Shown here: positions 1,440-38,749 of the stretch, piece by piece | Layout: every line of letters begins with the position of its first letter | Numbering within the stretch: position 1 is the stretch's first letter | Source: a virus | Lineage: Duplodnaviria > Heunggongvirae > Uroviricota > Caudoviricetes | DNA: 38,749 bases | Strand: one strand, 5' to 3' | Virus record (IMG/VR): IMGVR_UViG_2579778884_000012 | Position numbers and translations under genes: made by a program | The notes under the pieces: model-generated | The model's input: the letters and a program-made list of their open reading frames with translations, nothing else | What the model was told of the DNA's origin: nothing | Databases searched by the model: none

Positions 1440-1446
1440 CCGTTTC

Positions 1447-1533
1447 GCTGAAAAACATAACCCATAAAATGCTAGCTGTACCAGGAACCACCTCCTTAGC
1501 CTGTGTAATCTCCCTTACACGGGCTTATTTTTT
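1447..1533 (+). ncRNA. cyaR: Hfq-dependent small RNA CyaR (RyeE), about 87 nt, ending in an intrinsic terminator
   Basis: Sequence GCTGAAAAACATAACCCATAAAATGCTAGCTGTACCAGGAACCACCTCCTTAGCCTGTGTAATCTCCCTTACACGGGCTTATTTTTT recognised from memory as CyaR. It contains the CCUCCUU anti-SD seed, a 10-bp stem (1499..1508 / 1515..1524, one U-G pair) and a T-run (1525..1533). Location next to yegQ matches K-12. Confidence 0.7.
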
Positions 1534-1534
1534 A
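1507..1534. repeat. Prophage attachment core, yegQ/cyaR-proximal copy (next to the ogr end), 28 bp
   Basis: AATCTCCCTTACACGGGCTTATTTTTTA recurs at 38077..38104 with one mismatch (G1521 vs A38091). It is the reverse complement of the P2 att core as I recall it (AAAAAATAAGCCCGTGTAAGGGAGATT). It overlaps the cyaR terminator. Confidence 0.85.
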
Positions 1535-1596
1535 CGCGTAATACAATGAAATAAAAGGATTTATTTCTGGTCACGTCCACACATTGACCACATCGA

Positions 1597-1934: not shown

Positions 1935-3098
1935 TCACTCATCATCTTCTGTTTCGTACTCCACATCAGAAAGCCTGACCTCAAGCTCTAAGGACGTCGT
2001 GAAGCCGCTATTATTCAGAAAATGTGTCACCTTAGTGATTGTCCAGTCCTGCTCGTCTATGACGCGCTTAAAGCCTGACACCTTAACCGGTGTTTCCGTG
2101 TAAATATCTGCCCGACCGGTAGCCAGGCTGATGGAGAACTCCGCAACGCCCCGTTGCAGTTTATCCCACTTCGCCTGAGCGGCGCGCATGGCCTGCGCTT
2201 TCGTGGCATATACCGTGGTCAGGGCAAAAACATTGTCAGCCTCACCGGCCATGTATTCACCTTCGCGCGCTTCCGGCGCTTTTGGCGCTTTCTTCTGCGT
2301 GACTGGTTTCGCTTTCGGGTGCTCCAGTGCGCGCAGGTGTTTTTCTTTCTTTTTGCGTTTCAGTTTTACCTTCTGCTTTTGCGGCTTCGGGTCTTTGGTG
2401 TGAAGCCACTTTGCCGTTACGCCGGTATAGGCTCCACGGTCAGCAATCGCAAAATGGTGGCGGTCGCCGTCGCTGCGGGTTATGGTGACCTGCGGGATTT
2501 TTTTACCGCTGGCCGTCACCCCCTGCCCCGCTTTGAGAAACAACAGTTTTCCCATTTTTACCGAGACCTCACCGCCGTTGCGTTCTGCAAGACGGGTCAG
2601 GAATTTCGCATCAGACTCCTGCGACTGGTCGATGTGCGGAATTTTAATTCCGGCCAGTGACGGAGCGACACTGGCTTCCAGCCTGTTACGGGTGGCTATC
2701 GCCTCAACAATTGCACCGAGCGTGGTGTCATGCCAAGAGCCTTCACGGCGGGAATTGAGCGTCCCGCGAAAATCTGCACTCCGTGCGCGGATGGTGACCA
2801 CATCCGGTGCGCCCCGGTGTTCAACCTCATCAACGGTAAATTTCCCTTTGCATACCAGGGCAAAACCTTTCCAGCCGATATACACCGTCAGGACAGCGCC
2901 ACGAACCGGCAGCCCGACCTGCCCGTCGGCATCGTTCAGTTCAATATCAAGCTGGTCAGCCTCAAAGCCCCGGTTATCCGTCAGGGTCATACTCATCAGA
3001 CGGTCGCTGATATTGCCGGTAATATCCCTGCTGTCGAGCATCAGCATGTAATCCGGCGTCAGCGTACTGCCTGCATCAAATGTCAGCGTATCCAGCAT
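1935..3098 (-). CDS. D: Tail protein gpD, 387 aa
   Basis: Position between ogr and U; 387 aa equals P2 gpD length. Confidence 0.88.
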   Translation of the reverse strand: MLDTLTFDAGSTLTPDYMLMLDSRDITGNISDRLMSMTLTDNRGFEADQLDIELNDADGQVGLPVRGAVLTVYIGWKGFALVCKGKFTVDEVEHRGAPDVVTIRARSADFRGTLNSRREGSWHDTTLGAIVEAIATRNRLEASVAPSLAGIKIPHIDQSQESDAKFLTRLAERNGGEVSVKMGKLLFLKAGQGVTASGKKIPQVTITRSDGDRHHFAIADRGAYTGVTAKWLHTKDPKPQKQKVKLKRKKKEKHLRALEHPKAKPVTQKKAPKAPEAREGEYMAGEADNVFALTTVYATKAQAMRAAQAKWDKLQRGVAEFSISLATGRADIYTETPVKVSGFKRVIDEQDWTITKVTHFLNNSGFTTSLELEVRLSDVEYETEDDE

Positions 3099-3577
3099 TA
3101 TCCCGCCCCCGTCATACCTGTGAATCTGGTCGCCATACTGCCAGCCTTACCGATGAGCGACTCCGCCTGTTTACCGATATCGCCATAAAGCGCGGCCAGT
3201 GATTCATCAACGCGGGTGAGCGACAGCGTAAAATCAATTTTCCGGGGTGTGCCGTCTGCAAAGAAAATACTCCCTGTTTCACTCACCCTGCTGATGACAT
3301 ACATGCCGTAAATCATGCCGGTACCATCCAGCAACGGCCACGCCCGGCCTTCCTCTGCCATCAGTCTGAGCGTGGTCATCGTCAGCTTGCCGCCGGTCAG
3401 TTCGGGATAAAGCACACCGGCAAGCGTCATGTTTTCCTCACCAACGCCGAGAAACTGGTAGGCATCCCGTTTACCGATACGGGAATTTGACGGCCAGCGA
3501 TAATCTGATTCACGCTGCATGGTCTGGTGTGGCAGCGTCTGGCGCATAAAAACAAACATACCTAACGCGAGCATCAT
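3098..3577 (-). CDS. U: Tail protein gpU, 159 aa
   Basis: 159 aa equals P2 gpU; sits between T and D; start overlaps the D stop. Confidence 0.88.
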   Translation of the reverse strand: MMLALGMFVFMRQTLPHQTMQRESDYRWPSNSRIGKRDAYQFLGVGEENMTLAGVLYPELTGGKLTMTTLRLMAEEGRAWPLLDGTGMIYGMYVISRVSETGSIFFADGTPRKIDFTLSLTRVDESLAALYGDIGKQAESLIGKAGSMATRFTGMTGAG

Positions 3578-3591
3578 TTTTCGTCACCTCC

Positions 3592-6039
3592 TTAACCGTC
3601 ATGCATCATGCTGGCACGGGCGCGCGCACGTTTATCCCGCTCGTATTTTTCGAGCGCATCCTGTAACTGGCGGTCAAGCTGTGTCCCCGGTGCAGTACCA
3701 CCCGTCAGGCTGATGTGATATTCGTTTTTACTCTGGTCCACATAAGAGCGGCCAGCCGGTGCCGTGACCGGCTGATAAGCCTGATAGCCTGCATAAGAGC
3801 TGGTCGCCGGAATATAACCACCGGTGCCATACGTGGCGGCATGAGTTCTGGCGGCGGTCTGGTCAAGTGTGTCTGACTCTTTGTTGATGACCCCGAGCTT
3901 TTCCAGTACCCAGTCAATGCCGCTGCGTAATTTGTTGAACGCATTAAGCGGCAGCATCAGCGCGTCAGCCAGTGCCTGCCCGAACATGACGCCCGTGTCA
4001 CGGCAACGGTTCAGGGTGTCCTGGGTGGCTTTGACCGGTGCAATCAGGTTTTTAAACCACTGCCACGCGGCCTGTAACTTTTCGCCCAGCCAGTCAAACA
4101 CCGGCTTAAGTGGCGTGAACAGTTCTCCCACCGGAGCAAATGCCGCTTTCAGCCCTTCCACCACACCGCCAAAGAATGCGCTGACAGGCTCCCAGTATTT
4201 ACGGATAAGCAACGCCCCGGCGACAATGGCAGCCACCACGGCCACAACCGGCCAGCTAATCGCCCCGATGGCCGTCATAACGGCACTACCAACCGTCGTG
4301 AAGATTGCCCCCATTGCGCCTGCTGCCGCGATGATGGCATTGATGCCGGTGATAACCGGCCAGGCCACGAGGCCAATGGCACCGATGATGCCAGTAAGCG
4401 CCAGTGCGCCACCGGCAATGAGACCAATGGTTGACGCCAGTGATTTGTTTTTCTGTATCCAGCCGTCGAGTTTTAACACATACTTTGTGGCCGTCTGCAT
4501 GAGCTTACGCAGTGCGCCTTCCTGCTGGTCAAACAGGTCAGTCCCCACCGCCTCATAAGCGGACTGAAACTCCTTAAAGTCACCGCCGAGATTGTCCTGC
4601 ATGATATTTACCAGCTCTGCGGTCTTCCCGTCTGAGGCTTTAAACGCAGCGGTCAGTTTGTCCAGCTTTCCGGTTGAGGCGGCAGTCATCAGCACGGCGG
4701 CGGCTGAGCTGGCCTCCTCCCCGAAAATGGTTTTCATGTATTCAGCCTGCTGGGCAGTACCGAGCCGGTTTTTCTCAAAACTGGCCTGCATTTCTTTCAG
4801 AATGGTAAATACTGGTCGGGTATTCCCTTTACTGTCTGAGGTTTTCACGCCAAGCTCTTTGAGTGCATCCCATGCTTTTCCCGTTGGTGCCTGCAGGCGA
4901 CTTAACACGGCACGGCTTCCCGTCCCCGCCATTGAGCCTGTGATTTTTGCATCATGCAGCGCCCCGACCATTGCGGCGGTTTCTTCAATGCTGACACCGG
5001 CATTTTTTGCCACTGGTGCGGCATAGGTCAGCGCATCGCTCATGCCGTCAAAATCGGCGGCGGTTTTGTTCATCGTCATGGAGAGAACATCCCCGATATG
5101 AGCGACCTTATCGTTTGAAAGCTGAAAGGCGGATTTCATCCCCATCAGCAGGGCGGCGTTTTCTTCCATCGTGCGGCGGTTCGCCAGTGCCATATTCAGC
5201 GTGACCGGCGTTGCCGCCTGAATGGCATCAACATCCCCACCGGCTTTCGCAATGATAATCTGTGCACCGGCTGCATCATCCGCCGAGGCGGCAGTATTGT
5301 CACCGAGCTGGCGCGCCTGCTTGCGGAGTGCGGCCATTTCGGCGGAGTCTTTTGCCACACCTAGCACGGCCTGCAATTCTGAGTTTTTCTGCGCAAACTC
5401 ATAACCGGGCATCAGTAGCTTAACACCGGCCATCGTTCCCGCCGCCGCAATCCCCACACCGGCAGCGCCCACTGAGGCCATATTTCCGGCCAGTTCCTTT
5501 CCGGACTGATAACGCTGTTTTACTGCGTTAAGTTTTGCCTGTTGCGCACTGACACGCGCCAGCGCGTCGCGCTGACGGTTAAGCTGTGCGGTGGTTTCAC
5601 TGATACGGTTTTTCAGTCCCTGCTCATCATGTGCAAGATTGCGGGTATTAATTCCCACAGCGGCCAGTTCCCGCTGCTGGCGTTTAACGGAATCCGTCAG
5701 GCGGTTATATTTCGCCTGTAAGTCCTCCGCCGCACGCTTTGCGGATTCCAGCACTTTCGCCTGAGCACGGGTCGGACGTTCGGTGTTTTTAAACTGTGTG
5801 GCAAGGGCTTCGGCTTCCTGCCGAGCCTTTTCAAGTGCATGACCAGTCACGGCGAGCTGTGCACTGGTCTTGCGAAATCCCTCAATACGGGATGCGTGAC
5901 CGTTCAGCTCGCGCAGTGATTTTTGTGTGTCCCGGATATCCCCCGACAGCGACTTACTCGCTGTACGGATGGATTTAAACGGGCGGGATGCCTGGTCAAC
6001 AGCCCTGAGCAATACCTGTAATTTTACATTGTTACTCAT
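3592..6039 (-). CDS. T: Tail tape measure protein gpT, 815 aa
   Basis: 815 aa equals P2 gpT. Ala/Gly-rich hydrophobic central segment and coiled-coil N-terminal region typical of tape measure proteins. Confidence 0.9.
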   Translation of the reverse strand: MSNNVKLQVLLRAVDQASRPFKSIRTASKSLSGDIRDTQKSLRELNGHASRIEGFRKTSAQLAVTGHALEKARQEAEALATQFKNTERPTRAQAKVLESAKRAAEDLQAKYNRLTDSVKRQQRELAAVGINTRNLAHDEQGLKNRISETTAQLNRQRDALARVSAQQAKLNAVKQRYQSGKELAGNMASVGAAGVGIAAAGTMAGVKLLMPGYEFAQKNSELQAVLGVAKDSAEMAALRKQARQLGDNTAASADDAAGAQIIIAKAGGDVDAIQAATPVTLNMALANRRTMEENAALLMGMKSAFQLSNDKVAHIGDVLSMTMNKTAADFDGMSDALTYAAPVAKNAGVSIEETAAMVGALHDAKITGSMAGTGSRAVLSRLQAPTGKAWDALKELGVKTSDSKGNTRPVFTILKEMQASFEKNRLGTAQQAEYMKTIFGEEASSAAAVLMTAASTGKLDKLTAAFKASDGKTAELVNIMQDNLGGDFKEFQSAYEAVGTDLFDQQEGALRKLMQTATKYVLKLDGWIQKNKSLASTIGLIAGGALALTGIIGAIGLVAWPVITGINAIIAAAGAMGAIFTTVGSAVMTAIGAISWPVVAVVAAIVAGALLIRKYWEPVSAFFGGVVEGLKAAFAPVGELFTPLKPVFDWLGEKLQAAWQWFKNLIAPVKATQDTLNRCRDTGVMFGQALADALMLPLNAFNKLRSGIDWVLEKLGVINKESDTLDQTAARTHAATYGTGGYIPATSSYAGYQAYQPVTAPAGRSYVDQSKNEYHISLTGGTAPGTQLDRQLQDALEKYERDKRARARASMMHDG

Positions 6040-6459
6040 TCGTGTTTCCGCTTCGCCGGAGCGCCTTTTCGCGCCATGTGATGAGTTCGGTCAGGCTCAT
6101 GGGATACAGTTCTGATGGCGGCCAGTGAAATATCACTGCCACATCCGCCATCAGGTCATCGACCGAGAGATTTTTCGGAAACGTCACTGCACCGAGTTCG
6201 GCGACAAAAAACCGACCACCTTACCGGCCAGCGCCACAAGGTCAGGCAGTTCCAGCGCGGCGACTTCCTGCTCGGTCAGCATCGGTGCCGTCATGCGCGG
6301 CAGCACCTTAATCAGTGCATCGACTTCGGAGTTTGCAACCGCAGCCAGACTGACACCGCGCAGCGTCCCGGCATTGGGTTTCATCAGCGTGACCTTTTCG
6401 ATAACCTGCTCACCACGTTTGACCGGATTTTCCAGGGTAATGACATTTTCTTTGTTCAT
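6032..6459 (-). CDS. E+E': gpE+E' tail assembly chaperone made by -1 programmed frameshift, 142 aa
   Basis: Zero-frame codons GGT TTT TTG (6205..6213) form the T_TTT_TTG heptamer. I followed the -1 frame by hand to the first stop (TAA at 6032..6034): 85 + 57 codons = 142 aa, equal to P2 E+E'. The 3' end overlaps the T start (6039). Confidence 0.75.
6184..6459 (-). CDS. E: Tail assembly chaperone gpE, 91 aa
   Basis: 91 aa equals P2 gpE; located between FII and T; ends in GFLSPNSVQ over a T_TTT_TTG slippery site. Confidence 0.88.
   Translation of the reverse strand: MNKENVITLENPVKRGEQVIEKVTLMKPNAGTLRGVSLAAVANSEVDALIKVLPRMTAPMLTEQEVAALELPDLVALAGKVVGFLSPNSVQ
6205..6211 (-). promoter_or_regulatory. 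-1 ribosomal frameshift slippery heptamer T_TTT_TTG for E/E'
   Basis: Run of six T on the minus strand (A-run 6206..6211 on plus) in the zero-frame context GGT TTT TTG near the 3' end of E. Confidence 0.7.
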
Positions 6460-6487
6460 GGTTTTCTCACTTCTGAATCAGGGTTAA

Positions 6488-6508
6488 CCGGTCAGCCTGG
6501 CTGACCGG
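6488..6508 (-). other. Stem-loop between FII stop and E start
   Basis: CCGGTCAGC / GCTGACCGG 9-bp inverted repeat with a 3-nt loop and no following T-run. Possible RNA processing or attenuation structure; function unknown. Confidence 0.3.
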
Positions 6509-6515
6509 ATGAAAA

Positions 6516-7034
6516 TCACAGGCCGATATTGCGGCGGTGTTGCTCCAGTCGGTCGACGCCGTTCACCTTCTCAATCATGTTGATGGTGTCGATTTCGACC
6601 AGCTCCTTACCGTCCATCGTCAGCCGGAAATAGGTGCAGACCACGGAGATTTTCGACTCAGTGTCTTCTCCCTGTTTCCCCTCGCCGGTGTCGATTTCTT
6701 TCTGACGGCCACGCATGACCACCTCGACGGCCACCGTTTCGCCGGTATCGTCGCGCTGGTAAGAGCCTGCAAAACGAATCGGCACGGCATCCACACCGGT
6801 TGCGGCGTAAAGCTCCCAGATAACCGAATCCGGGAAGCCCCCGAGCGACCACTCCATTGACAGCGCATCGTCATCAAGGCCGAGGTCTACCGGTGCGCTG
6901 CCGTTCATCCCCGCACCGCGATAGTTTTCGAGCTTACGGGTCAGTTTTGGCAGCGTGACGGACTTTGCAACGCCCTGATAGCTGTAGCCGTTCAGAAAGA
7001 CGTTCATTAACTTGAGTTTGCGCGGCATTGCCAT
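6516..7034 (-). CDS. FII: Tail tube protein gpFII, 172 aa
   Basis: 172 aa equals P2 FII; lies directly after FI. Confidence 0.9.
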   Translation of the reverse strand: MAMPRKLKLMNVFLNGYSYQGVAKSVTLPKLTRKLENYRGAGMNGSAPVDLGLDDDALSMEWSLGGFPDSVIWELYAATGVDAVPIRFAGSYQRDDTGETVAVEVVMRGRQKEIDTGEGKQGEDTESKISVVCTYFRLTMDGKELVEIDTINMIEKVNGVDRLEQHRRNIGL

Positions 7035-7046
7035 CGGTCAGGCTCC

Positions 7047-8237
7047 TTAATTGCTGTTAACCGAGGTGACCAGATTTGCCAGGTATTTATCGGTAATACG
7101 CTGGCGCAGGGTCAGGTTTTCAAGAGGAGGCACCGGGGTATAGTCGTAGTCGATATACAGTTTTCCGGCCTTGAGGGTTTCCGCATCGTTGGATTCTTCG
7201 CTGAACCAGCAGGTCGCATCCACGATATAGCCGTTTGTTTTCAGCTCACGGAATTTGGCATTAATGCCGTCAACGATGTCGCGAATCAGCGTTGCGGTGA
7301 TGGGCTTATCCACCGCCCACATGTGCGCCTCAGCCATCGTGTCGGCCAGCACCTGCGCGGTGCGGGTGTAGTTTTCAAAGAGGAACAGCGGGTCATCGGA
7401 GCAGGTACGGTTACCCCAGAAGCGGAAACCGTCGCGGCGAATCAGCGTTGTGACGCCTGACTCGTTAAGCAGGTCAGCATCGGTGCCGGACTCCTGCAAA
7501 TCCCAGAATACAGAGGCGCTGATGCCGGTAACACCGTTCACCCCAACGTTGGACAGCGTTTTATGCCAGCCCTGCTCCTGGTCGATTTTAGCGCGCAGAC
7601 CCAGCGCACGGGCGGTGGCATACGCGGTGGCGGTGGTACTGGTGACCGTATCCCATGCGAGGAAATCCGGCCAGATGACCATCAGCTCACGCTGGCTGAA
7701 ATTCTGGCGGTAGGCTTTCACCTCGGAAATGGTCTTACATCCCCATGCGCTGATATACCCGAAAGCACGCAGCTTCTGACAGACTGATGCCAGTGCAACA
7801 GCCACCTCTTTGGTGTCCAGTCCCGGCACGCCGAGAATACGCGGTTTAACACCAGTTACCGACTCCGCCGCCAGCAGGGCTTTCAGTCCGGTGTACTGAC
7901 CGTTTTCGTCGGTGGTGCCGATGATATTGGAAACGGTCTGCGCGAGTTTCGTTTCCTCGTCGTCGCCGGTGCCGTCTTCCACACGCACGACAACGGTGAC
8001 CGGTTTTGACTGGTCGGCGATAGCCTGCAACGATGCCGCCAGCGTGCCTTTTTTACCGGCCTTTGCAATCGCGCTCTGCACATTGGTAATCAGCACCGGT
8101 TTATTGAGGGGGAAGGTTTCCGCATCCGCATCGCTGGCCGTGCAGACCATGCCGACAATGGCGGTGGATACGGTGGAAATGACGCGGGTGCCGTCGTTAA
8201 TCTCCAGCACCTGCACGCCATGATGATAGTCGCTCAT
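7047..8237 (-). CDS. FI: Contractile tail sheath protein gpFI, 396 aa
   Basis: 396 aa equals P2 FI; start MSDYHHGVQVLEINDGTRVISTVSTAIVGMV. Confidence 0.9.
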   Translation of the reverse strand: MSDYHHGVQVLEINDGTRVISTVSTAIVGMVCTASDADAETFPLNKPVLITNVQSAIAKAGKKGTLAASLQAIADQSKPVTVVVRVEDGTGDDEETKLAQTVSNIIGTTDENGQYTGLKALLAAESVTGVKPRILGVPGLDTKEVAVALASVCQKLRAFGYISAWGCKTISEVKAYRQNFSQRELMVIWPDFLAWDTVTSTTATAYATARALGLRAKIDQEQGWHKTLSNVGVNGVTGISASVFWDLQESGTDADLLNESGVTTLIRRDGFRFWGNRTCSDDPLFLFENYTRTAQVLADTMAEAHMWAVDKPITATLIRDIVDGINAKFRELKTNGYIVDATCWFSEESNDAETLKAGKLYIDYDYTPVPPLENLTLRQRITDKYLANLVTSVNSN

Positions 8238-8671
8238 CCGTTTAACTCCGTGGTTAATGGGTGCAACTATTTTCTGTTGGGCAGTGCATGAGACGCTATT
8301 TGACCTGGCTGGTCAGTGGATGAAACAACAGATAAAGAAAAGGCGGGCAATCAGCCCGCCCGTCCTGATTTGTACTCGCTCAGTTTCCAACTGACAATTT
8401 ACGTAGCCAAAACGCTATCAGCTCTGACAGCCAGCTTTGAGCGAGTCGAAAAAGTTCATACCTTTCTGCTGGTGAAAGTTTAACTAACAGTTCAACCTAT
8501 CAATTAATTGATGAACAGGTTGAGGCGTTTTTAATATCTCTGCGTCATCTGAGACGATTTTGCGCTACAGGATTTACGGCTTATCTGGGGGCATTCTTGA
8601 GCCCTGACTCCTCTGAAAACATAATTAGGCCATACCTGTGACCTGCTCTTCGTTGGTAAGGTTAGCGAATA

Positions 8672-9781
8672 TTAATCTGAGTCCATTTTCCCAAACTCTG
8701 TCAGGCCGAAAACGGAGCTACCAGAAACATGAGCTTGTAAGCCCGCTTCCTGCATGTCACTTAATTCAACTTCTTGGCTATCCTCTAATCCGATAGAGAA
8801 CATGGGATAGGCCCAGTTCCAATTCGGATCAGGAACCAAACTATTATTCTCTATCTTGAAAAAGCTGACCATGAGATGATGCCTTCCCTGTATCGCCTCT
8901 TCATCATTGATGTTGACCAGTACACCAAAGTGCTTGTAGCCGGCTTGTCCATTCTCGAACATTTTTATCTTGGTGCCGTTTCTGAACATCCAAAAAGAAT
9001 GATTTCCAGTGGAATCAGCGACCTGCAAGTTATCTTCGTCAATTTCCCAATTAAGATATTGTTTGATATCAGACTTTGGTTTGAGTTTTTCGTCATTACT
9101 AAACCATTGTATTGCCGGAAGTGGAAGGTGAAGACCTTCCGGCTGGGGAGGCTGACCTGCAGCAATGGAATGCATGATCTCTGTCATTGATGGAAGCCCC
9201 ATCAAATGCCATACATCATGGATATCCTTTTTAAGTATAAGAAGCCCTTTGGATACACCATCCGCGTAAGTTGACTTTAAGCGGACTAGTATGTCCTTGT
9301 TACCATCTTTGTCGAGGTCTTCAATGTTTACTGAAGAAGCCACAACCTCGTCGTCCCCTGCGTCTGGGATGATTGCCCAATACCCAATATCGTAGAATCC
9401 AGGTCTGCCAACCACCTTATCTATCAAACTCTGTCCAGAGGGCTCGAAGACCATCAGGAAACGGCTAAGGGCACCATTTGTGCTCACAGTTCTTCCGTAG
9501 ACTACAACGGAGTTTGAGGTGCTTAGATCGAGAGACTCGCTAGCCACTGAGTCAAACGCCACTGAGTCCAAATGTGTGGCAAGCTGCTGCTGGATGCACT
9601 CCCGAGCCATTTCAACTAATTTTTCGCGAACATCAGCAGATCGTATTGGCTGTGAAGTGAAATGGAAAAGCCCTACTGTAGCCGCTATGCCTATTATTCC
9701 CGAAATAACGGTACTTAGAACCTGCTCCTTTACCACTTTCACAACTTTCATCAATAGCTTCTTCAACTTCACTTCAGGCAC
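8672..9781 (-). CDS. Hypothetical membrane-anchored protein (accessory cargo at the Z/fun position), up to 369 aa
   Basis: Long AT-rich ORF between FI and G. One N-terminal hydrophobic helix (VLSTVISGIIGIAATVGLFHF) followed by about 320 aa of soluble domain with no motif I recognise. The track start is a GTG directly after an in-frame TAG; the first ATG is 10 codons in (9751), so the true start is uncertain. Confidence 0.6.
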   Translation of the reverse strand: MPEVKLKKLLMKVVKVVKEQVLSTVISGIIGIAATVGLFHFTSQPIRSADVREKLVEMARECIQQQLATHLDSVAFDSVASESLDLSTSNSVVVYGRTVSTNGALSRFLMVFEPSGQSLIDKVVGRPGFYDIGYWAIIPDAGDDEVVASSVNIEDLDKDGNKDILVRLKSTYADGVSKGLLILKKDIHDVWHLMGLPSMTEIMHSIAAGQPPQPEGLHLPLPAIQWFSNDEKLKPKSDIKQYLNWEIDEDNLQVADSTGNHSFWMFRNGTKIKMFENGQAGYKHFGVLVNINDEEAIQGRHHLMVSFFKIENNSLVPDPNWNWAYPMFSIGLEDSQEVELSDMQEAGLQAHVSGSSVFGLTEFGKMDSD

Positions 9782-15785: not shown

Positions 15786-16562
15786 ATGGTCAGCTATAAT
15801 GTGACTAATGTGTGGGAGCTAATCGTTTTGTATCTTTTGGTCTTTGCAGTATTAGCATTTTTTAGCTTTGGTAAAAGTAACCTTATGAGGCTTATTGCAC
15901 ATTATTTCAAATTTGGATATTCAGACAAAAAATTAAAAAGACTGGACCGCGAGTGGCGCGACATTCAACTATTTAAAATACTTAACGGAATCAATGTATC
16001 AGGCATCGAAGATGTGAGAATGATACAGCAGGGGCTGATTGATGGAAAACTAAAAACATCGGATTTTTTCCTTACTCGCTTCTGGGGAGACATAACAGAA
16101 CCGCCATGCATCACAAAAACAATGAGTGCAGTCCTGGCCGGAATTCTTTATATTATCTTCGCATGTTGCATACACAACGAGCAATCTGCCATAGTAGAGG
16201 ATGCCATAGCCATACCATATAAAAATATGATGTACCATGTTTATAATGACAAGGTTCTTTTGTTCTCCGACAATAAAACAGATAAGTTCTATAAAGCTTT
16301 TAGCATTGCCGATTGCAAGAGACTGCAGAACACTTTTGTAACAGACACACTTCCTGCAATCGCCTGCAATAAGCTCTTACAGCTAAACGAGGAGGACTCC
16401 GAATGGTTAAGTCAGGAGATTAAAGATAATAACAGCCACAGAAAAACATTATTAATAATATCCCTAATCTATTTCATTTCAGGTGCGTATTTTCATGAAA
16501 GGAGATCACTCAATAACTTCCATCGAGATCGGGTAATAACATTTGAACAGATCGCTGAATAA
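15786..16562 (+). CDS. Hypothetical integral membrane protein (accessory gene at the orf30 position), 258 aa as it stands
   Basis: AT-rich ORF on the strand opposite the late genes, with a good RBS (AAGGAGAGCGTA ATG). Three predicted hydrophobic helices (about residues 12-29, 114-130, 230-245). Its last seven codons and stop lie inside the inferred IS terminal repeat. Confidence 0.65.
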   Translation: MVSYNVTNVWELIVLYLLVFAVLAFFSFGKSNLMRLIAHYFKFGYSDKKLKRLDREWRDIQLFKILNGINVSGIEDVRMIQQGLIDGKLKTSDFFLTRFWGDITEPPCITKTMSAVLAGILYIIFACCIHNEQSAIVEDAIAIPYKNMMYHVYNDKVLLFSDNKTDKFYKAFSIADCKRLQNTFVTDTLPAIACNKLLQLNEEDSEWLSQEIKDNNSHRKTLLIISLIYFISGAYFHERRSLNNFHRDRVITFEQIAE

Positions 16563-16676
16563 CATCGATGGAGATCACTTTTGACTCATTTTGTTATTCA
16601 GTGATCTCCATCAATGTTATTGGAACTTCACAGGTGTGTTGATCTGTATCTTTTGCCATTCCGGTAAAGGATACCT

Positions 16677-18218
16677 ATGCCAACAGTTCCAATTTCTATG
16701 AGAAAACTTAAAGAAATTCTTAGGCTTAAATACGGTGTTGGACTCAGCCATCGACAAATTGGTCGTAGTCTTGCAATCTCCCCTTCCGTTGTATCCAGAT
16801 ATGCTAATCGGGCGGCTCAACTTGGCATAAAGCAGTGGCCCTTACCTACAGGATGGGATGATACAAAACTAAAACATGCGTTCCTTCAGACCCAGGTTAA
16901 GATGAAGAAGCACTCTCTGCCTGACTGGGCTACAGTACACCGGGAACTGCGTAATAAATGCGTGACGCTGCAGCTACTCTGGGAAGAATACTGTGAGCGT
17001 AATCCAGGCGGTTTTTACAGCTATAACCATTACTGCCGGATGTACCGTGAATGGCTCAAAACCACTTCACCATCAATGCGTCAGGTACATAAAGCTGGCG
17101 AAAAACTTTTCGTTGATTACTGTGGACCTACCGTTGGCGTTACCGACCCTGAGACCGGAGAAATAAGAACTGCTCAGGTCATCGTAGCTGTTCTCGGGGC
17201 ATCAAGTTACACATGGGCAGAGGCCACCTGGTCTCAGCAGCTTGAAGACTGGGTGATGAGTCATGTTCGCTGCTTCCAGTGGTTGGGTGGCGTTCCTGAA
17301 CTTGTTGTTCCGGACAATCTGAAAAGCGCCACATCCAGGGCATGTAAGTATGATCCTGACGTTAACCCTACCTACCAGCAGATGCTTGAGCATTATAATG
17401 TCGCAGTTTTGCCTGCGCGGCCACGTAAACCGAAAGATAAAGCCAAAGCTGAAGTTGGCGTTCAGGTTGTTGAACGCTGGATCATGGCCCGAATCAGGCA
17501 TGAGATCTTCTACAGCCTTGCATCGCTTAATCAGCGCATTCGGGAGTTGCTGGAAAGACTGAATAACAAAATAATGCAGAAGTTGGGTTATTCACGTGCA
17601 GAACTCTTCATCCAGCTTGATAAACCCGCACTGAAGCCTCTTCCTGAAGCCAGTTACAGTTACACCCTGGTGAAGAAAGTCAGAGTTCATGCCGATTACC
17701 ACGTGGAAATCGACAAACATTACTACTCGGTTCCATGTTCGCTGTTAGGCCAGCAACTGGAAGCATGGATCTCCGGAGAACTGGTAAGACTCTTCAATCA
17801 GGGGCAGGAGGTTGCTGTGCACCCGCGCAAGCGTACTTATGGCTACAGTACCCGCAACGAGCACATGCCTGAAGCTCATCGACAGCATGCCACCTGGACG
17901 CCAGAGCGTCTTCTGGAATGGGCGGGGCACATAGGCAGTGAAACTCATAGTTATGTGCTTCATATACTGAACTCTCGTCCACATCCGGAACAAAGCTATC
18001 GCTTCTGCCTTGGACTCCTGAACCTTCATAAAAAATACAGTAAAGCCAGACTTAATGCAGCATGTGCAAGAGCTCTGAAAACAAAGGTATGGCGTCTGTC
18101 AGGTATTAAATCGATCCTGGAAAAAGGTCTGGATAAACAACCTGTTCAGGATCCAAAACCAGATCTGTTATCCACGATGGAACACGAAAACGTACGCGGC
18201 AGTGAGTATTACCACTGA
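16677..18218 (+). CDS. istA: IS21-family transposase IstA, 513 aa
   Basis: N-terminal helix-turn-helix (LSHRQIGRSLAISPSVVSRY), central DDE-type integrase-like region, followed 12 bp later by istB; typical IS21 layout. Confidence 0.85.
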   Translation: MPTVPISMRKLKEILRLKYGVGLSHRQIGRSLAISPSVVSRYANRAAQLGIKQWPLPTGWDDTKLKHAFLQTQVKMKKHSLPDWATVHRELRNKCVTLQLLWEEYCERNPGGFYSYNHYCRMYREWLKTTSPSMRQVHKAGEKLFVDYCGPTVGVTDPETGEIRTAQVIVAVLGASSYTWAEATWSQQLEDWVMSHVRCFQWLGGVPELVVPDNLKSATSRACKYDPDVNPTYQQMLEHYNVAVLPARPRKPKDKAKAEVGVQVVERWIMARIRHEIFYSLASLNQRIRELLERLNNKIMQKLGYSRAELFIQLDKPALKPLPEASYSYTLVKKVRVHADYHVEIDKHYYSVPCSLLGQQLEAWISGELVRLFNQGQEVAVHPRKRTYGYSTRNEHMPEAHRQHATWTPERLLEWAGHIGSETHSYVLHILNSRPHPEQSYRFCLGLLNLHKKYSKARLNAACARALKTKVWRLSGIKSILEKGLDKQPVQDPKPDLLSTMEHENVRGSEYYH

Positions 18219-18229
18219 TACGGGATCCA

Positions 18230-18979
18230 ATGATGAATCATCTTTACGAACAACTGACCGCACTTAAACTCACCGGCTTCCGTGATGCGCTTAAAAAGCA
18301 ACTTGCTCAACCGGGCACATACCAGGAGCTGGGCTTCGAAGAACGCCTGTCATTACTGACAGCAGAAGAACTAACCTGCCGTGAAAACAGGAAGGCAGAG
18401 CGTCTGATCAAACATGCACGGTTCAGACTTAATGCTGAGTTATCAAAGCTGGATTATCGTAACAATAGAGGGCTGGACAGGGCCCTCATCCGTTCACTCA
18501 GTCAGGGAAACTGGTTAACCCTGAAACAAAATATTTTACTGACCGGGGCCACCGGCAGCGGTAAAACGTTCCTGGCATGTGCACTTGGTCATAATGCCTG
18601 CCGACAGGGATACAAGGTCTACTATTATCGCCTTAAAGCGCTGATGGAACAGTGCTATCAGGGGCATGCTGATGGAAGATACAGCAAACTTTTGACCAGG
18701 CTGAATAATAGCGATCTGCTGCTTCTGGATGACTGGGGGCTGGAACCTCTCTCATCAGAACAGCGTAGCGACCTGCTGGAAATAGTGGATCTGATGTACC
18801 AACGAGGCTCAATCATCGTAGTGAGCCAGTTGCCGGTGGAAAACTGGTACAAAATGATCGGAGACTCCACACATGCGGATGCCATCCTAGATCGACTGGT
18901 TCATGGCAGTATCAAGATCGAACTTAAAGGAGAATCAATGCGGAAAATACAATCTCCGTTGACCGAAGGAGATCAGTGA
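18230..18979 (+). CDS. istB: IS21-family ATP-binding helper protein IstB, 249 aa
   Basis: Walker A motif GATGSGKT and Walker B LLLLDDWG; DnaC-like AAA+ fold typical of IstB. Confidence 0.88.
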   Translation: MMNHLYEQLTALKLTGFRDALKKQLAQPGTYQELGFEERLSLLTAEELTCRENRKAERLIKHARFRLNAELSKLDYRNNRGLDRALIRSLSQGNWLTLKQNILLTGATGSGKTFLACALGHNACRQGYKVYYYRLKALMEQCYQGHADGRYSKLLTRLNNSDLLLLDDWGLEPLSSEQRSDLLEIVDLMYQRGSIIVVSQLPVENWYKMIGDSTHADAILDRLVHGSIKIELKGESMRKIQSPLTEGDQ

Positions 18980-28827: not shown

Positions 28828-29769
28828 ATGCAAGGTGAAGTTGACGAACAGCAACCAAATGAGATTATTTCGGAGTTTGGATACTATCCAGTAGAAGTTA
28901 ACATTGAGACTGAACAATTTTCTTTGCGTACTTTACCCGGTCTTATTGAGAACGTGGAACGTATTAACAATGATAAAAACGTTGTTAATGGTTGGATATA
29001 CCCTGGGAATCGAAAGGTATATAACCTTAATGGTGACACATGCACAATGCCTTATAGTTACCGAGTATTCGGCATGCCCAAAACGCACACACTAAAATTA
29101 AAAAACACATCCTCGTTAGAAACTCTCAACTTTGTTGTGTGGTGCCTCTCTTTTTTCAAGGGTATAAGATTGACAACCACTGACGCTGGTTTTCTTGATG
29201 CAACCACTATCAAGCCCACTAAGTTAACCGACTTTATTCTCGTTGGATGCTCTGAAAAAGAAGTAATAGAGCTAGCACTTAACTATATAAAAGACAAACA
29301 AAAAGATGATCGCTCCATTAAAAGAATAGCTGCGGTGATACACTCCCTATTCCTGTCACATAACCCACTATACCTTTCCTTTGAGAAATTCCAGTATCTT
29401 TATATGGCTCTTGATTGCTGTTTTGCTATAGCATGGGATGAAAGGGATAAAGTCATTAAAGAGAAAAAACCATCTCATCAAAATAGAGTATATTGGATGT
29501 GCGAAAATTACGGTGTAAAAATCCCGTCATGGGCAACAGATGAATGTAATGTTTCAGTTATACGCAATGATAATTTTCATGAAGCCATTTTTAATGGGCA
29601 ACCGCTTGGTTTCTCTAGTATCAATGATTGTCAATATGGTAGCGATATATTGCTACAAATGCAGGCTCTGGTATGTCGTCTACTAGCGGCAATACTCTCT
29701 GTAAATGATCGTAAATATATCGCATCTACAATCAGCTCGATAGAGTACCATTCATTAAAATTAACTTAA
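28828..29769 (+). CDS. Hypothetical protein with C-terminal HEPN-like R-x4-H motif (accessory cargo at the old/tin position), 313 aa
   Basis: AT-rich ORF with RBS GGAGAAAGTT ATG. Residues 246-251 are R-N-D-N-F-H (CGC AAT GAT AAT TTT CAT, 29563..29580), the HEPN-type motif, about 60 residues from the C-terminus. Not P2 Old or Tin by size or sequence. Confidence 0.6.
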   Translation: MQGEVDEQQPNEIISEFGYYPVEVNIETEQFSLRTLPGLIENVERINNDKNVVNGWIYPGNRKVYNLNGDTCTMPYSYRVFGMPKTHTLKLKNTSSLETLNFVVWCLSFFKGIRLTTTDAGFLDATTIKPTKLTDFILVGCSEKEVIELALNYIKDKQKDDRSIKRIAAVIHSLFLSHNPLYLSFEKFQYLYMALDCCFAIAWDERDKVIKEKKPSHQNRVYWMCENYGVKIPSWATDECNVSVIRNDNFHEAIFNGQPLGFSSINDCQYGSDILLQMQALVCRLLAAILSVNDRKYIASTISSIEYHSLKLT

Positions 29770-30088: not shown

Positions 30089-30769
30089 CTACATCTTTAT
30101 TGCATATTTATTAAAAGACGCCCAGTTCAATAAAAAAACATTATTCATATACCATTCAATATAATTTTTATTTTTAGATTGACTGTCAAGTAGCACACAA
30201 ACATCAACCTGTTTATCAATCAATTTTGCAATATAAACCACAAACTCAACACTCGAATATCTCTTTGTGCCTAGCAAATATAATATTTCATCTGACAAAT
30301 AATTAGACTCATGTGAAAAGACATTATCATTTAACAAAATCAACCCGCCAATCGAGTCATTTAAATCCAAAACATCCTTTGTTGCATTTATTTGCTTATT
30401 AGCTTCCTTAACTATCTTTGTTTTAATATTTTCATAAGCAAAGTTCATTATATCATTTCTAAATCGCTTTGAGTCTGGGTGTCTTTTTATCAACTCTTCT
30501 AAATGAATAGCACCATGCCAGTTTTTTGCAAGCCAACTATCAGTTTTAACCAACTCATTCAGTTTATCATTGACATTCTTGACCCTGTCAGAAAAAAGAC
30601 TTTTCATCTCCAAAATTATCTTTTTATTATCAATAAGATAATCTGCCATCTTGCGATTCTGACCATCCTTCATCCGGAACTTATGATGAATATCATCAAT
30701 AGAAATCCCTTTTTCATGCTCAACAATGAATCTCTTAACATTGTTTTCTAATTCGCTGTATTGTTTCAT
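30089..30769 (-). CDS. Hypothetical protein (accessory cargo), 226 aa, probably co-transcribed with the upstream DUF2158-like gene
   Basis: AT-rich Lys/Asn-rich ORF; start 27 bp after the small upstream gene's stop, with a GGGGGA RBS; no motif I recognise. Confidence 0.6.
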   Translation of the reverse strand: MKQYSELENNVKRFIVEHEKGISIDDIHHKFRMKDGQNRKMADYLIDNKKIILEMKSLFSDRVKNVNDKLNELVKTDSWLAKNWHGAIHLEELIKRHPDSKRFRNDIMNFAYENIKTKIVKEANKQINATKDVLDLNDSIGGLILLNDNVFSHESNYLSDEILYLLGTKRYSSVEFVVYIAKLIDKQVDVCVLLDSQSKNKNYIEWYMNNVFLLNWASFNKYAIKM

Positions 30770-36983: not shown

Positions 36984-37997
36984 ATGGCAATCAAAAAACT
37001 CGATGATGGTCGATATGAAGTGGACATCCGCCCTACTGGACGTAACGGAAAACGCATCCGTAGGAAGTTTGATAAGAAAAGCGAAGCTGTCGCTTTCGAA
37101 AAATACACGTTGTACAACCACCACAATAAAGAATGGCTATCAAAACCAACAGACAAACGACGTCTGTCGGAACTGACACAGATCTGGTGGGATTTAAAGG
37201 GTAAACACGAAGAGCATGGGAAATCTAATCTTGGAAAAATTGAAATCTTCACAAAAATAACGAATGACCCATGCGCATTTCAAATCACGAAATCCCTTAT
37301 CAGCCAGTACTGCGCCACCCGAAGAAGTCAGGGTATTAAACCTTCGAGTATCAATCGTGATTTAACATGTATTAGCGGCATGTTTACAGCCCTGATTGAA
37401 GCGGAGTTATTCTTTGGTGAGCACCCTATCAGAGGGACAAAGAGGCTTAAGGAGGAAAAACCAGAAACAGGCTATCTCACACAGGAAGAAATTGCCTTAC
37501 TGCTTGCAGCACTTGACGGCGACAACAAAAAGATTGCGATTCTTTGCCTGAGTACAGGAGCACGTTGGGGAGAAGCAGCTCGTTTGAAAGCAGAAAATAT
37601 CATCCATAACCGCGTCACGTTTGTTAAAACGAAAACAAACAAACCACGCACCGTCCCGATCTCAGAGGCTGTTGCCAAAATGATCGCGGATAACAAACGA
37701 GGTTTTTTATTCCCTGATGCTGATTACCCTCGCTTCAGACGAACAATGAAAGCAATAAAACCGGATTTGCCAACGGGGCAAGCCACACATGCACTAAGGC
37801 ACAGCTTTGCCACTCATTTCATGATTAATGGAGGAAGTATTATCACGCTACAACGGATACTAGGTCACACGCGGATTGAGCAAACTATGGTTTACGCTCA
37901 TTTTGCGCCAGAGTACCTTCAGGACGCCATTTCTCTTAATCCGCTAAGAGGTGGTACTGAAGCCGAGAGTGTCCACACAGTGTCCACAGTAGAGTAA
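36984..37997 (+). CDS. int: Tyrosine integrase Int, 337 aa
   Basis: 337 aa equals P2 Int; C-terminal catalytic residues (HALRHSFATH ... LGHTRIEQTMVYAH); lies next to the att core. Confidence 0.9.
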   Translation: MAIKKLDDGRYEVDIRPTGRNGKRIRRKFDKKSEAVAFEKYTLYNHHNKEWLSKPTDKRRLSELTQIWWDLKGKHEEHGKSNLGKIEIFTKITNDPCAFQITKSLISQYCATRRSQGIKPSSINRDLTCISGMFTALIEAELFFGEHPIRGTKRLKEEKPETGYLTQEEIALLLAALDGDNKKIAILCLSTGARWGEAARLKAENIIHNRVTFVKTKTNKPRTVPISEAVAKMIADNKRGFLFPDADYPRFRRTMKAIKPDLPTGQATHALRHSFATHFMINGGSIITLQRILGHTRIEQTMVYAHFAPEYLQDAISLNPLRGGTEAESVHTVSTVE

Positions 37998-38076: not shown

Positions 38077-38104
38077 AATCTCCCTTACACAGGCTTATTT
38101 TTTA
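38077..38104. repeat. Prophage attachment core, yegR-proximal copy (next to int), 28 bp
   Basis: AATCTCCCTTACACAGGCTTATTTTTTA; 27 of 28 identical to 1507..1534. Confidence 0.85.
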
Positions 38105-38431
38105 TGCATAAGCCCTATCCCTGGTCACCGTCTTCCATTGACCACATCGATAGAATCTCCCTTAATAGCACGATGCCTTTCACTTATCGACATCGTGCTC
38201 GCACAGGTTCCGGTTACGCACAGCCAGAACGCGCATGTTTGACGCTTACCAAAAAATGAACCTAAAGCATTGGAATATTTTTGACATCATTTTCTGATGG
38301 CTGCATAAAATAAAAATTCTGCTTTAGTTTCATCTATCTGTTTGTCATTATTACTCACATTCAATAATGGTGTTGAAGAATATCCCATCACAGATAAAAT
38401 AAATATGTGCATGGTAGTCTTGAATCTATTC

Positions 38432-38749
38432 TCACTCTCCACATTTGAATGTCAGACGAGCAACGCCATGTAATCCTGCACCTTCTGTCTTCAATTTAAC
38501 TATCTGCATTTTTTTGCCCTGAGTAACACAGAAATGGGCTGCATCATTTTTTACTATATTTTCTGCACCAGATATTCTGCCCCTGGCTAAAGAAGCTTCG
38601 GCTTCGGTGTAGTATTGGTTATCGAGTTTACGCTGAATATTACTTTTATATGCAAGACCAAATTTACCGATACTTGTCTCATCATTATGTACAGCACACC
38701 CAGACATAAGAAAAATACTAATTAATGATATAGCAGCTATCTTTTTCAT
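38432..38749 (-). CDS. yegR: Host lipoprotein (YegR-like), 105 aa, start codon at the window edge
   Basis: Signal peptide plus lipobox (MKKIAAISLISIFLMSGC). The 105-aa length and position after the cyaR-linked P2 site match E. coli yegR; the symbol is assigned from synteny and length. Confidence 0.6.
   Translation of the reverse strand: MKKIAAISLISIFLMSGCAVHNDETSIGKFGLAYKSNIQRKLDNQYYTEAEASLARGRISGAENIVKNDAAHFCVTQGKKMQIVKLKTEGAGLHGVARLTFKCGE

Follow-up and report, generated by a model that had tools for sequence, protein, structure and literature searches.

A probable fossil of a P2-type phage arm beside the cyaR attachment site of Escherichia coli

In the 38,749-nt stretch of DNA analysed here (hereafter, the window), the host sequence just outside the int-proximal junction of a P2-like prophage seems to be the remains of an earlier phage. 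Positions 38104–38151 (plus strand), resident host DNA that directly adjoins the attachment core, are best read as a decayed, internally deleted P2-type P arm, that is, the fossil ogr-side arm of an earlier P2-like element at the attachment (att) site in the 3' end of cyaR in an ancestor of E. coli, a reading to which we assign a probability of about 0.8. This stub is a flank of attB that is fixed in E. coli, is present with or without a phage, and is not peculiar to the strain of the window. An earlier note on this DNA had suggested that an older P2-like element left a scar at this site, a proposal that is supported by the empty sites, the collinearity, the long alleles, the outgroups, and the far end of the islet described below. 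Of the span given in that note (38105–38431), 38104–38151 is arm-derived and the remainder is not.

The window begins with yegQ (1–1362), followed by the cyaR small RNA gene (1445–1530, plus strand; Rfam RF00112, 100.7 bits), the terminator of which forms the left part of the 27-bp att core; CyaR was the only RNA family detected in the window region, either at the gathering level or at E ≤ 1. The 3' end of cyaR, already known in the literature as a P2 site, is the att site of the window prophage, P2, the remnant in strain K-12, and prophages of eight other species. The current P2-like prophage lies between two copies of the core, one at the cyaR/ogr-side junction (AATCTCCCTTACACGGGCTTATTTTTT, 1507–1533, plus strand) and one at the int-side junction (38077–38103, plus strand), and runs from its ogr side (ogr and D, from ~1635) to int (36984–37997). 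The two copies differ by one base at core position 15, which is G at 1521, the phage allele found in P2 attP, and A at 38091, the host allele found in empty sites of the same lineage; thus, strand exchange occurred to the left of core position 15. When the host flanks of the window are joined, the left up to core position 14 and the right from position 15, the product is identical at 817 of 817 positions to the unoccupied site of AVS0155. Three prophage ORFs (15786–18979, 28828–29769, and 30089–30769), located on the strand opposite to the structural blocks or between them, may be cargo of the moron or defence type.

The P (ogr-side) arm of the current prophage comprises an IHF-site region (1532–1565, plus strand), homologous to the P2 IHF site (AF063097, 24324–24357), and an integrase arm-type site, GGTCACGTCCACACATTGACCACATCGA (1569–1596, plus strand), which corresponds to the Int 'P arm' of P2 (AF063097, 24293–24320). 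Its two boxes lie at 1574–1581 and 1585–1592 and were compared with the consensus tgTGGaCa; P2-type arms carry at least two direct repeats of this consensus (PMC3448106). The int-side (P') arm contains two TGTGGACA arm-type boxes within the 3' end of int (37970–37988, minus strand). A perfect 8-bp inverted repeat, GGGCTTAT-N9-ATAAGCCC (38096–38120), spans the end of the int-side core and the first bases of the stub, overlapping the T-run of the cyaR terminator, and its GCCC half falls at the place from which the IHF site has disappeared.

The host copy CTGGTCACCGTCTTCCATTGACCACATCGAT (38121–38151) repeats the ogr-side arm CTGGTCACGTCCACACATTGACCACATCGAC of the prophage (1567–1597), and the stub and the phage P arm are collinear, on the same strand and on the same side of the core. 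A repeat search pairs 1562–1601 with 38116–38155 at 75% identity without gaps. Moreover, the 15-mer CATTGACCACATCGA occurs exactly twice in the window (1582–1596 and 38136–38150), where dinucleotide shuffles predict 0.01 occurrences; it is flanked by further matches (CTGGTCAC and TAYGCRTAA), and the first 9 nt past the core also match (host TATGCATAA, phage TACGCGTAA). Local alignment of the core and arm with 38105–38431 yields a score of 38 (shuffle mean 17.2, maximum 34), and global alignment of the post-core segments, with the window allele, yields a z of 5.5, matched by none of 25,730 real genomic windows. The arm-like repeat that had been noticed beside the int-side att core is therefore present on the evidence of repeat pairing, the 15-mer, and the alignment scores, and its 15 of 15 match proved to be unique to two sites in the window; its coordinates had been set one position too low (38120–38150), the host copy CTGGTCACC...ATCGAT occupying 38121–38151.

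The matching phage segment is the one annotated in P2 as the integrase 'P arm' site, with a 34-bp IHF site between it and the core (AF063097). The stub thus resembles the P arm of P2 attP (AF063097, 24293–24357): the two are homologous, share strand and placement with respect to the core, and agree exactly in box 2 and the bases that flank it. The stub differs from the phage arm in the loss of box 1, in the deletion of the IHF region (degenerate in the long alleles), and in having no ogr terminator or ogr downstream; unlike the phage arm, it is host DNA at empty sites. Box 1 of the stub (38129–38136, plus strand) reads CGTCTTCC against CGTCCACA in the phage, with 5 of 8 positions retained and the CCA core lost, whereas box 2, TGTGGTCA (38139–38146, minus strand), matches its counterpart in the phage P arm at every position. 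The spacer between core and arm site measures 16 nt in the host copy versus 32 in the phage and, therefore, the IHF site is missing in the window allele, whose IHF region alone shows no significant similarity (p ~0.12). A functional P arm directly adjoins the 27-bp core, on its ogr side and with matching orientation, carries at least two direct tgTGGaCa repeats ~11 bp apart, and has an IHF site between core and repeats; the contiguity and orientation are conserved in the stub, box 2 is the only matching repeat, and the IHF site is absent from the window allele.

In the short allele, significant similarity hardly exceeds the Int footprint (~35 nt), so that it could be suspected to represent only Int- or IHF-binding motifs shared by both arms of any P2 att site. 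The long alleles found in other strains indicate otherwise. These have a 28-nt spacer, which in the IHF-site region reads GGATTGATCCCTGGTCAC against GGATTTATTTCTGGTCAC in the phage, and they occur in IMG/VR junction contigs and in at least 343 complete genomes (matches at ≥95% identity), empty sites included. Past the core, 47 of 65 positions of the best long allele agree with the phage arm (z 7.6), and none of 25,712 genomic windows does as well; the IHF region of this allele alone reaches p ~0.002, being partly retained and degenerate. As the homology of the long alleles runs into the IHF-site region, it cannot be reduced to a shared motif. The int-side arm, where the boxes read GTGTCCACACAGTGTCCACAG, does not contain the 15-mer, so that the match points to the P arm in particular. 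The distance from core to stub varies among alleles (13, 15, 16, or 28 nt), and the short allele of the window seems to derive from a long2-type allele by loss of 12 nt. A chance resemblance, or convergence on a common DNA motif, would find some footing in the short allele, whose significant part of ~35 nt coincides with a protein-binding motif, but it would have to produce a 15-mer expected 0.01 times, on the shared strand and core side and with additional flanking matches, as well as the extended homology of the long alleles, for which more than 25,000 genomic windows offer no comparable match; such a coincidence is extremely improbable.

The arrangement yegQ–cyaR–stub–yegR without a prophage is found in strains 536, A42, 2002-3211, O157 Z903, STB20-1, PCN033, and C1, and a 75-nt probe centred on the stub detects it in 5,327 of 5,426 complete E. 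coli genomes (~98%), nearly always in single copy. The comparison of strains with and without a prophage that the earlier note had called for thus places the stub in unoccupied E. coli sites. A living phage bearing the stub version of the arm was not found: in the 80 of 116 IMG/VR matches that were examined, the stub was always host flank at a contig end, and in 74 of these 80 the int-side arm and core lay immediately to its left. A search of phage collections with the stub region and YegR likewise returned nothing but matches to the core and int-side arm, apart from two records into which host flank extends, ON470606 and 'Phage TP' AY639599, the latter being the K-12 remnant.

At four of the IMG/VR junctions (L115, L125, L159, and L161) the host side starts with the phage-type ACGCGTAA instead of ATGCATAA, so that exchange or conversion sometimes passes a few bases beyond the 27-bp core. 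These phage-type bases just past the core could also point to recent, recurrent gene conversion from resident P2-like prophages as the source of the stub, in place of one ancient insertion. Such an origin is very improbable, because the stub is present at unoccupied sites in all lineages examined and in ~98% of genomes, and because the decayed box 1 and the deletions are common across lineages, unlike what would be expected from fresh copies of intact arms.

Outside E. coli, 80 loci from other species were compared, among which two non-coli Escherichia lineages are represented, Escherichia sp. E1V33 and E. albertii. In 45 of the 80, yegS lies within 250 nt of the cyaR core, and yegR and the E. 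coli stub are present in none. Escherichia sp. E1V33 and the right flank of the relic in E. albertii show the bare ancestral junction, with neither stub nor yegR. The P-arm sequence is, in turn, conserved in P2-like prophages located at cyaR in Scandinavium, Citrobacter, Trabulsiella, and Enterobacter. The presence of the same P arm in prophages of several genera indicates transfer from phage to host, with the E. coli lineage as the recipient. The reverse direction, in which P2-like phages would have acquired their P arm from the E. coli flank by aberrant excision, would agree with the geometry of the site, as the phage and host copies adjoin the same core, yet it is scarcely credible: the arm is conserved with its IHF site and both boxes in prophages of several genera that lack the stub, its repeats occur family-wide among P2-type phages with different cores (PMC3448106), and the host copy is the degenerate one. 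Transfer from phage to host is therefore retained as the preferred direction.

Extra DNA is present at the cyaR–yegS junction in 23 of the 80 other-species loci, which makes this junction a general insertion hot spot. Six Enterobacter loci (L006, L066, L071, L074, L079, and L081) share a cyaR–yegS insert of ~500 bp that begins GCCTTCTCT..CCAGGCAATAAG. One of them, L006 (CP169086.1), bears the label Enterobacter hormaechei B17-3, and from 4665 to 7533, the final base of the cyaR core, it shares 99% identity with E. coli K-12; ~1.5 kb of Enterobacter-like DNA (7534–9071, 90% identical to L081) comes next, and the sequence then returns to an Escherichia-like type. The record represents either an E. 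coli under the wrong label, in which the yegR islet and yegS have been replaced, or else a hybrid that crossed over precisely at the att core. An independent decayed P-arm relic lies at cyaR in a soil MAG (L062, 7534–7600), where 39 of 50 positions are identical to the arm of a Scandinavium prophage, and in E. bugandensis (L047) a hairpin resembling the ogr terminator is all that remains after the core, as another independent relic. The scars in the soil MAG and in E. bugandensis show that relic formation at cyaR recurs.

To the right of the stub, 11 nt (AATCTCCCTTA, 38154–38164, plus strand) match the core at its left end and vary among strains. This 11-mer occurs three times in the window (at 1507, 38077, and 38154), with 0 occurrences expected. 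The earlier note had interpreted it as a partial third copy of the core and placed it at 38155–38165, one position too high. The 11-mer is indeed there, but as a core copy it is weak: only the left 11 of 27 nt match, the crossover region has no counterpart, and most lineages retain 10 nt or fewer. Among the 80 IMG/VR junctions, 43 read AATCTCCCTTC, 30 read AATCCTCCTTC, and one reads as the window, while strain 536 has AATACTCCTTC at this site. Moreover, a third core copy at this position does not fit the geometry of a simple relic formed by a single deletion. A two-layer model, in which the stub and the 11-mer constitute a separate collapsed relic, was considered and rejected, as it needs a deletion ending exactly at the core edge in addition to complete decay of the remaining 16 core positions.

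The rest of the interval contains an inverted repeat, AGCACGATG-N15-CATCGTGCT (38167–38199), with an 11-bp stem in other lineages. This hairpin occupies the position of the ogr terminator in phage arms, but without a T-run, and it received no terminator call in a promoter and terminator scan whose counts were no better than those of shuffles. A 170-bp segment (38258–38427) is an indel, present in ~950 of 5,426 E. coli genomes, including the window, 536, and A42, and absent from ~4,400, including K-12. It contains the truncated start of a lipoprotein gene that lies downstream of yegR in other enterobacteria, the 5' piece of which extends over 38313–38431 (minus strand; amino acids 4–38, 40% identity). 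DNA homology of this piece reaches 38313, leaving ~37 first codons of the second gene in the window. It is followed by the islet cargo yegR (38432–38749, minus strand), which encodes 105 amino acids and is assigned to PF27694 by precomputed family, the local Pfam scan giving only a sub-threshold match to DUF333.

Overall, 38313–38749 is 72–77% identical to a chromosomal pair formed by yegR and the second lipoprotein gene in other enterobacteria, where it is flanked by a glutaminase or acetyltransferase gene and by a nitroreductase gene. This identity to a gene pair located elsewhere marks yegR and its cut-down neighbour as foreign cargo; the orphan lipoprotein gene yegR was probably brought into E. 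coli by the older element. Phage genes were not detected in the islet, as tblastn with Int and tblastx and short-word blastn searches against the whole prophage returned only the 15-mer, and YegR was not found in phage records other than those including host flank. Homologues of YegR were also considered as markers of a less-decayed relic and discarded, as none of them was accompanied by one, those with 90% and 77% identity coming from low-quality E. coli-like assemblies and those with 49–82% identity from unrelated chromosomal or IS-flanked contexts.

Beyond the window, the ancestral yegS flank resumes at CGACTTTCATCC, ~330 bp past its end, preceded by ...TCAGTGG...CCCCATTGTAAGCTCCTGGTGGTAAGCACTGAATCCCCATACCTGAACTGACTTTTTAT. 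Exactly where this flank resumes, the right end of the islet (L002, ~4380–4478) is identical to the P' arm and core at 54 of 83 positions. An 80-nt semi-global alignment anchored at the right junction scores 19, a value that 1 of 42,045 real-sequence windows attains, the similarity being modest when the core part is left out (p ~0.007). The right end of the islet thus resembles a decayed second core with its int-side arm, and we infer that the yegR islet of ~1 kb is a single old integrated element or its remainder. As in other prophage scars, the locus combines a known att site of the family, collinear homology that goes beyond a motif, and absence from relatives with the ancestral junction; the islet itself has no residual phage genes.

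The events could have proceeded as follows. An ancestor of E. coli would have acquired a P2-like element at the cyaR core, and deletions would have stripped the genes of this element and left an islet of ~1 kb, which reads from left to right P-arm stub, hairpin, truncated lipoprotein gene, yegR, AT-rich spacer, and the presumed decayed int-side arm and core near yegS. The cyaR-proximal core would have stayed intact, as it is the cyaR terminator, and later P2-like phages would recombine there, so that the older remains would always come to lie just outside the int-proximal junction. The current prophage of the window has inserted in this way, in agreement with the phage and host alleles at position 15 of its two cores, and in K-12 an intermediate ogrK–D' layer lies between the core and the stub.

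The K-12 remnant at cyaR (ogrK, yegZ/D', and a truncated core), named 'ogr-D'' (PMC3032704), had been offered as a parallel for the scar of the window. It is indeed a same-site remnant: like the stub, it represents a deletion-reduced P2-like prophage in the same att site and orientation, with its P arm joined to the cyaR core. It differs in that its arm is intact, that it retains ogr and a portion of D, and that it is specific to certain strains, whereas the stub has no gene, is decayed, and is fixed in the species. The order in K-12 is core, intact P arm, ogrK, D fragment, truncated core, and then the same stub; since the stub lies to the right of the ogrK/yegZ remnant, it constitutes an older and separate layer, and the K-12 remnant is a younger one to its left.

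A further same-site case is provided by E. albertii NBRC 107761 (L008, 7534–10905), in which cdtABC-like genes lie within a P2-like remnant at cyaR. From left to right, this relic consists of a P-arm fragment, an IS fragment, cdtABC, the P' arm, and the core, followed by the ancestral flank; its P arm is cut within box 1 beside the IS fragment, whereas the P' arm and second core are nearly intact. Like the E. coli islet, it lies at the same site and has kept both arms and cargo while losing its phage genes. However, the E. albertii relic is young, its arms being identical to P2-type arms at 82 of 92 positions, while decay has advanced much further in the E. coli islet, the cargo of which is yegR and not cdt.

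As for the present role of the stub, it most likely has none, since one of its two integrase boxes is destroyed and the IHF site is deleted in the window allele. It is unlikely that the stub is also a working element, in which the box TGTGGTCA, 36–43 bp from the core, would bind the N-terminal domain of the P2 integrase in the B arm of attB or attL and alter integration preference or excision. Such a role would account for the identity of the box to box 2 of the phage P arm and for its conservation, with its flanks CCGTCTTCCATTGACCACATCGATAGAAT, in seven of seven aligned lineages while neighbouring positions vary, but an invariance of ~30 nt among sequences that are 93–100% identical is not significant. 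Core-only, short attB substrates suffice for P2 recombination in vitro, which also speaks against it. Moreover, the core distance of 13, 15, 16, or 28 nt and the lack of an IHF site seem ill-suited to a geometry-dependent site, box 1 is destroyed, whereas P2-type arms have at least two direct repeats (PMC3448106), and a natural strain carries IS3 inserted in the box. In that insertion (L103, strain 14EC047, 1543), CATTGACCAC of the surviving arm box abuts IS3; an IS1 occupies the same intergenic region in another strain (hit H1, strain UID2404240032).

Every stub-bearing attB nevertheless places one intact arm-type box ~40 bp from the core, so that, once a phage has integrated, arm-type sites flank the core of the int-proximal junction to left and right, as in attP. 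From this arrangement it might be conjectured, as quite an unlikely outcome, that the leftover box still recruits the P2 integrase, biasing site choice towards cyaR or damping excision. If this were true, an ancient prophage scar would act as a host-encoded modulator of present-day P2 lysogeny.

A description of the stub was not found in the literature searched, which did not extend to the 1992 paper on sequencing of P2 att sites. The stub is a new example of a familiar object, the prophage scar, and reveals no new mechanism. It calls for caution in drawing prophage boundaries, given that 74 of 80 stub-bearing IMG/VR prophage contigs extend past the true junction into the flank. From left to right, the serial layers of occupancy at cyaR would comprise the current prophage, the K-12-type remnant, the arm stub, the yegR islet, and the decayed core. 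The preferred P2 site of E. coli would thus not be pristine host DNA, its flank consisting of the remains of an earlier P2-like insertion.
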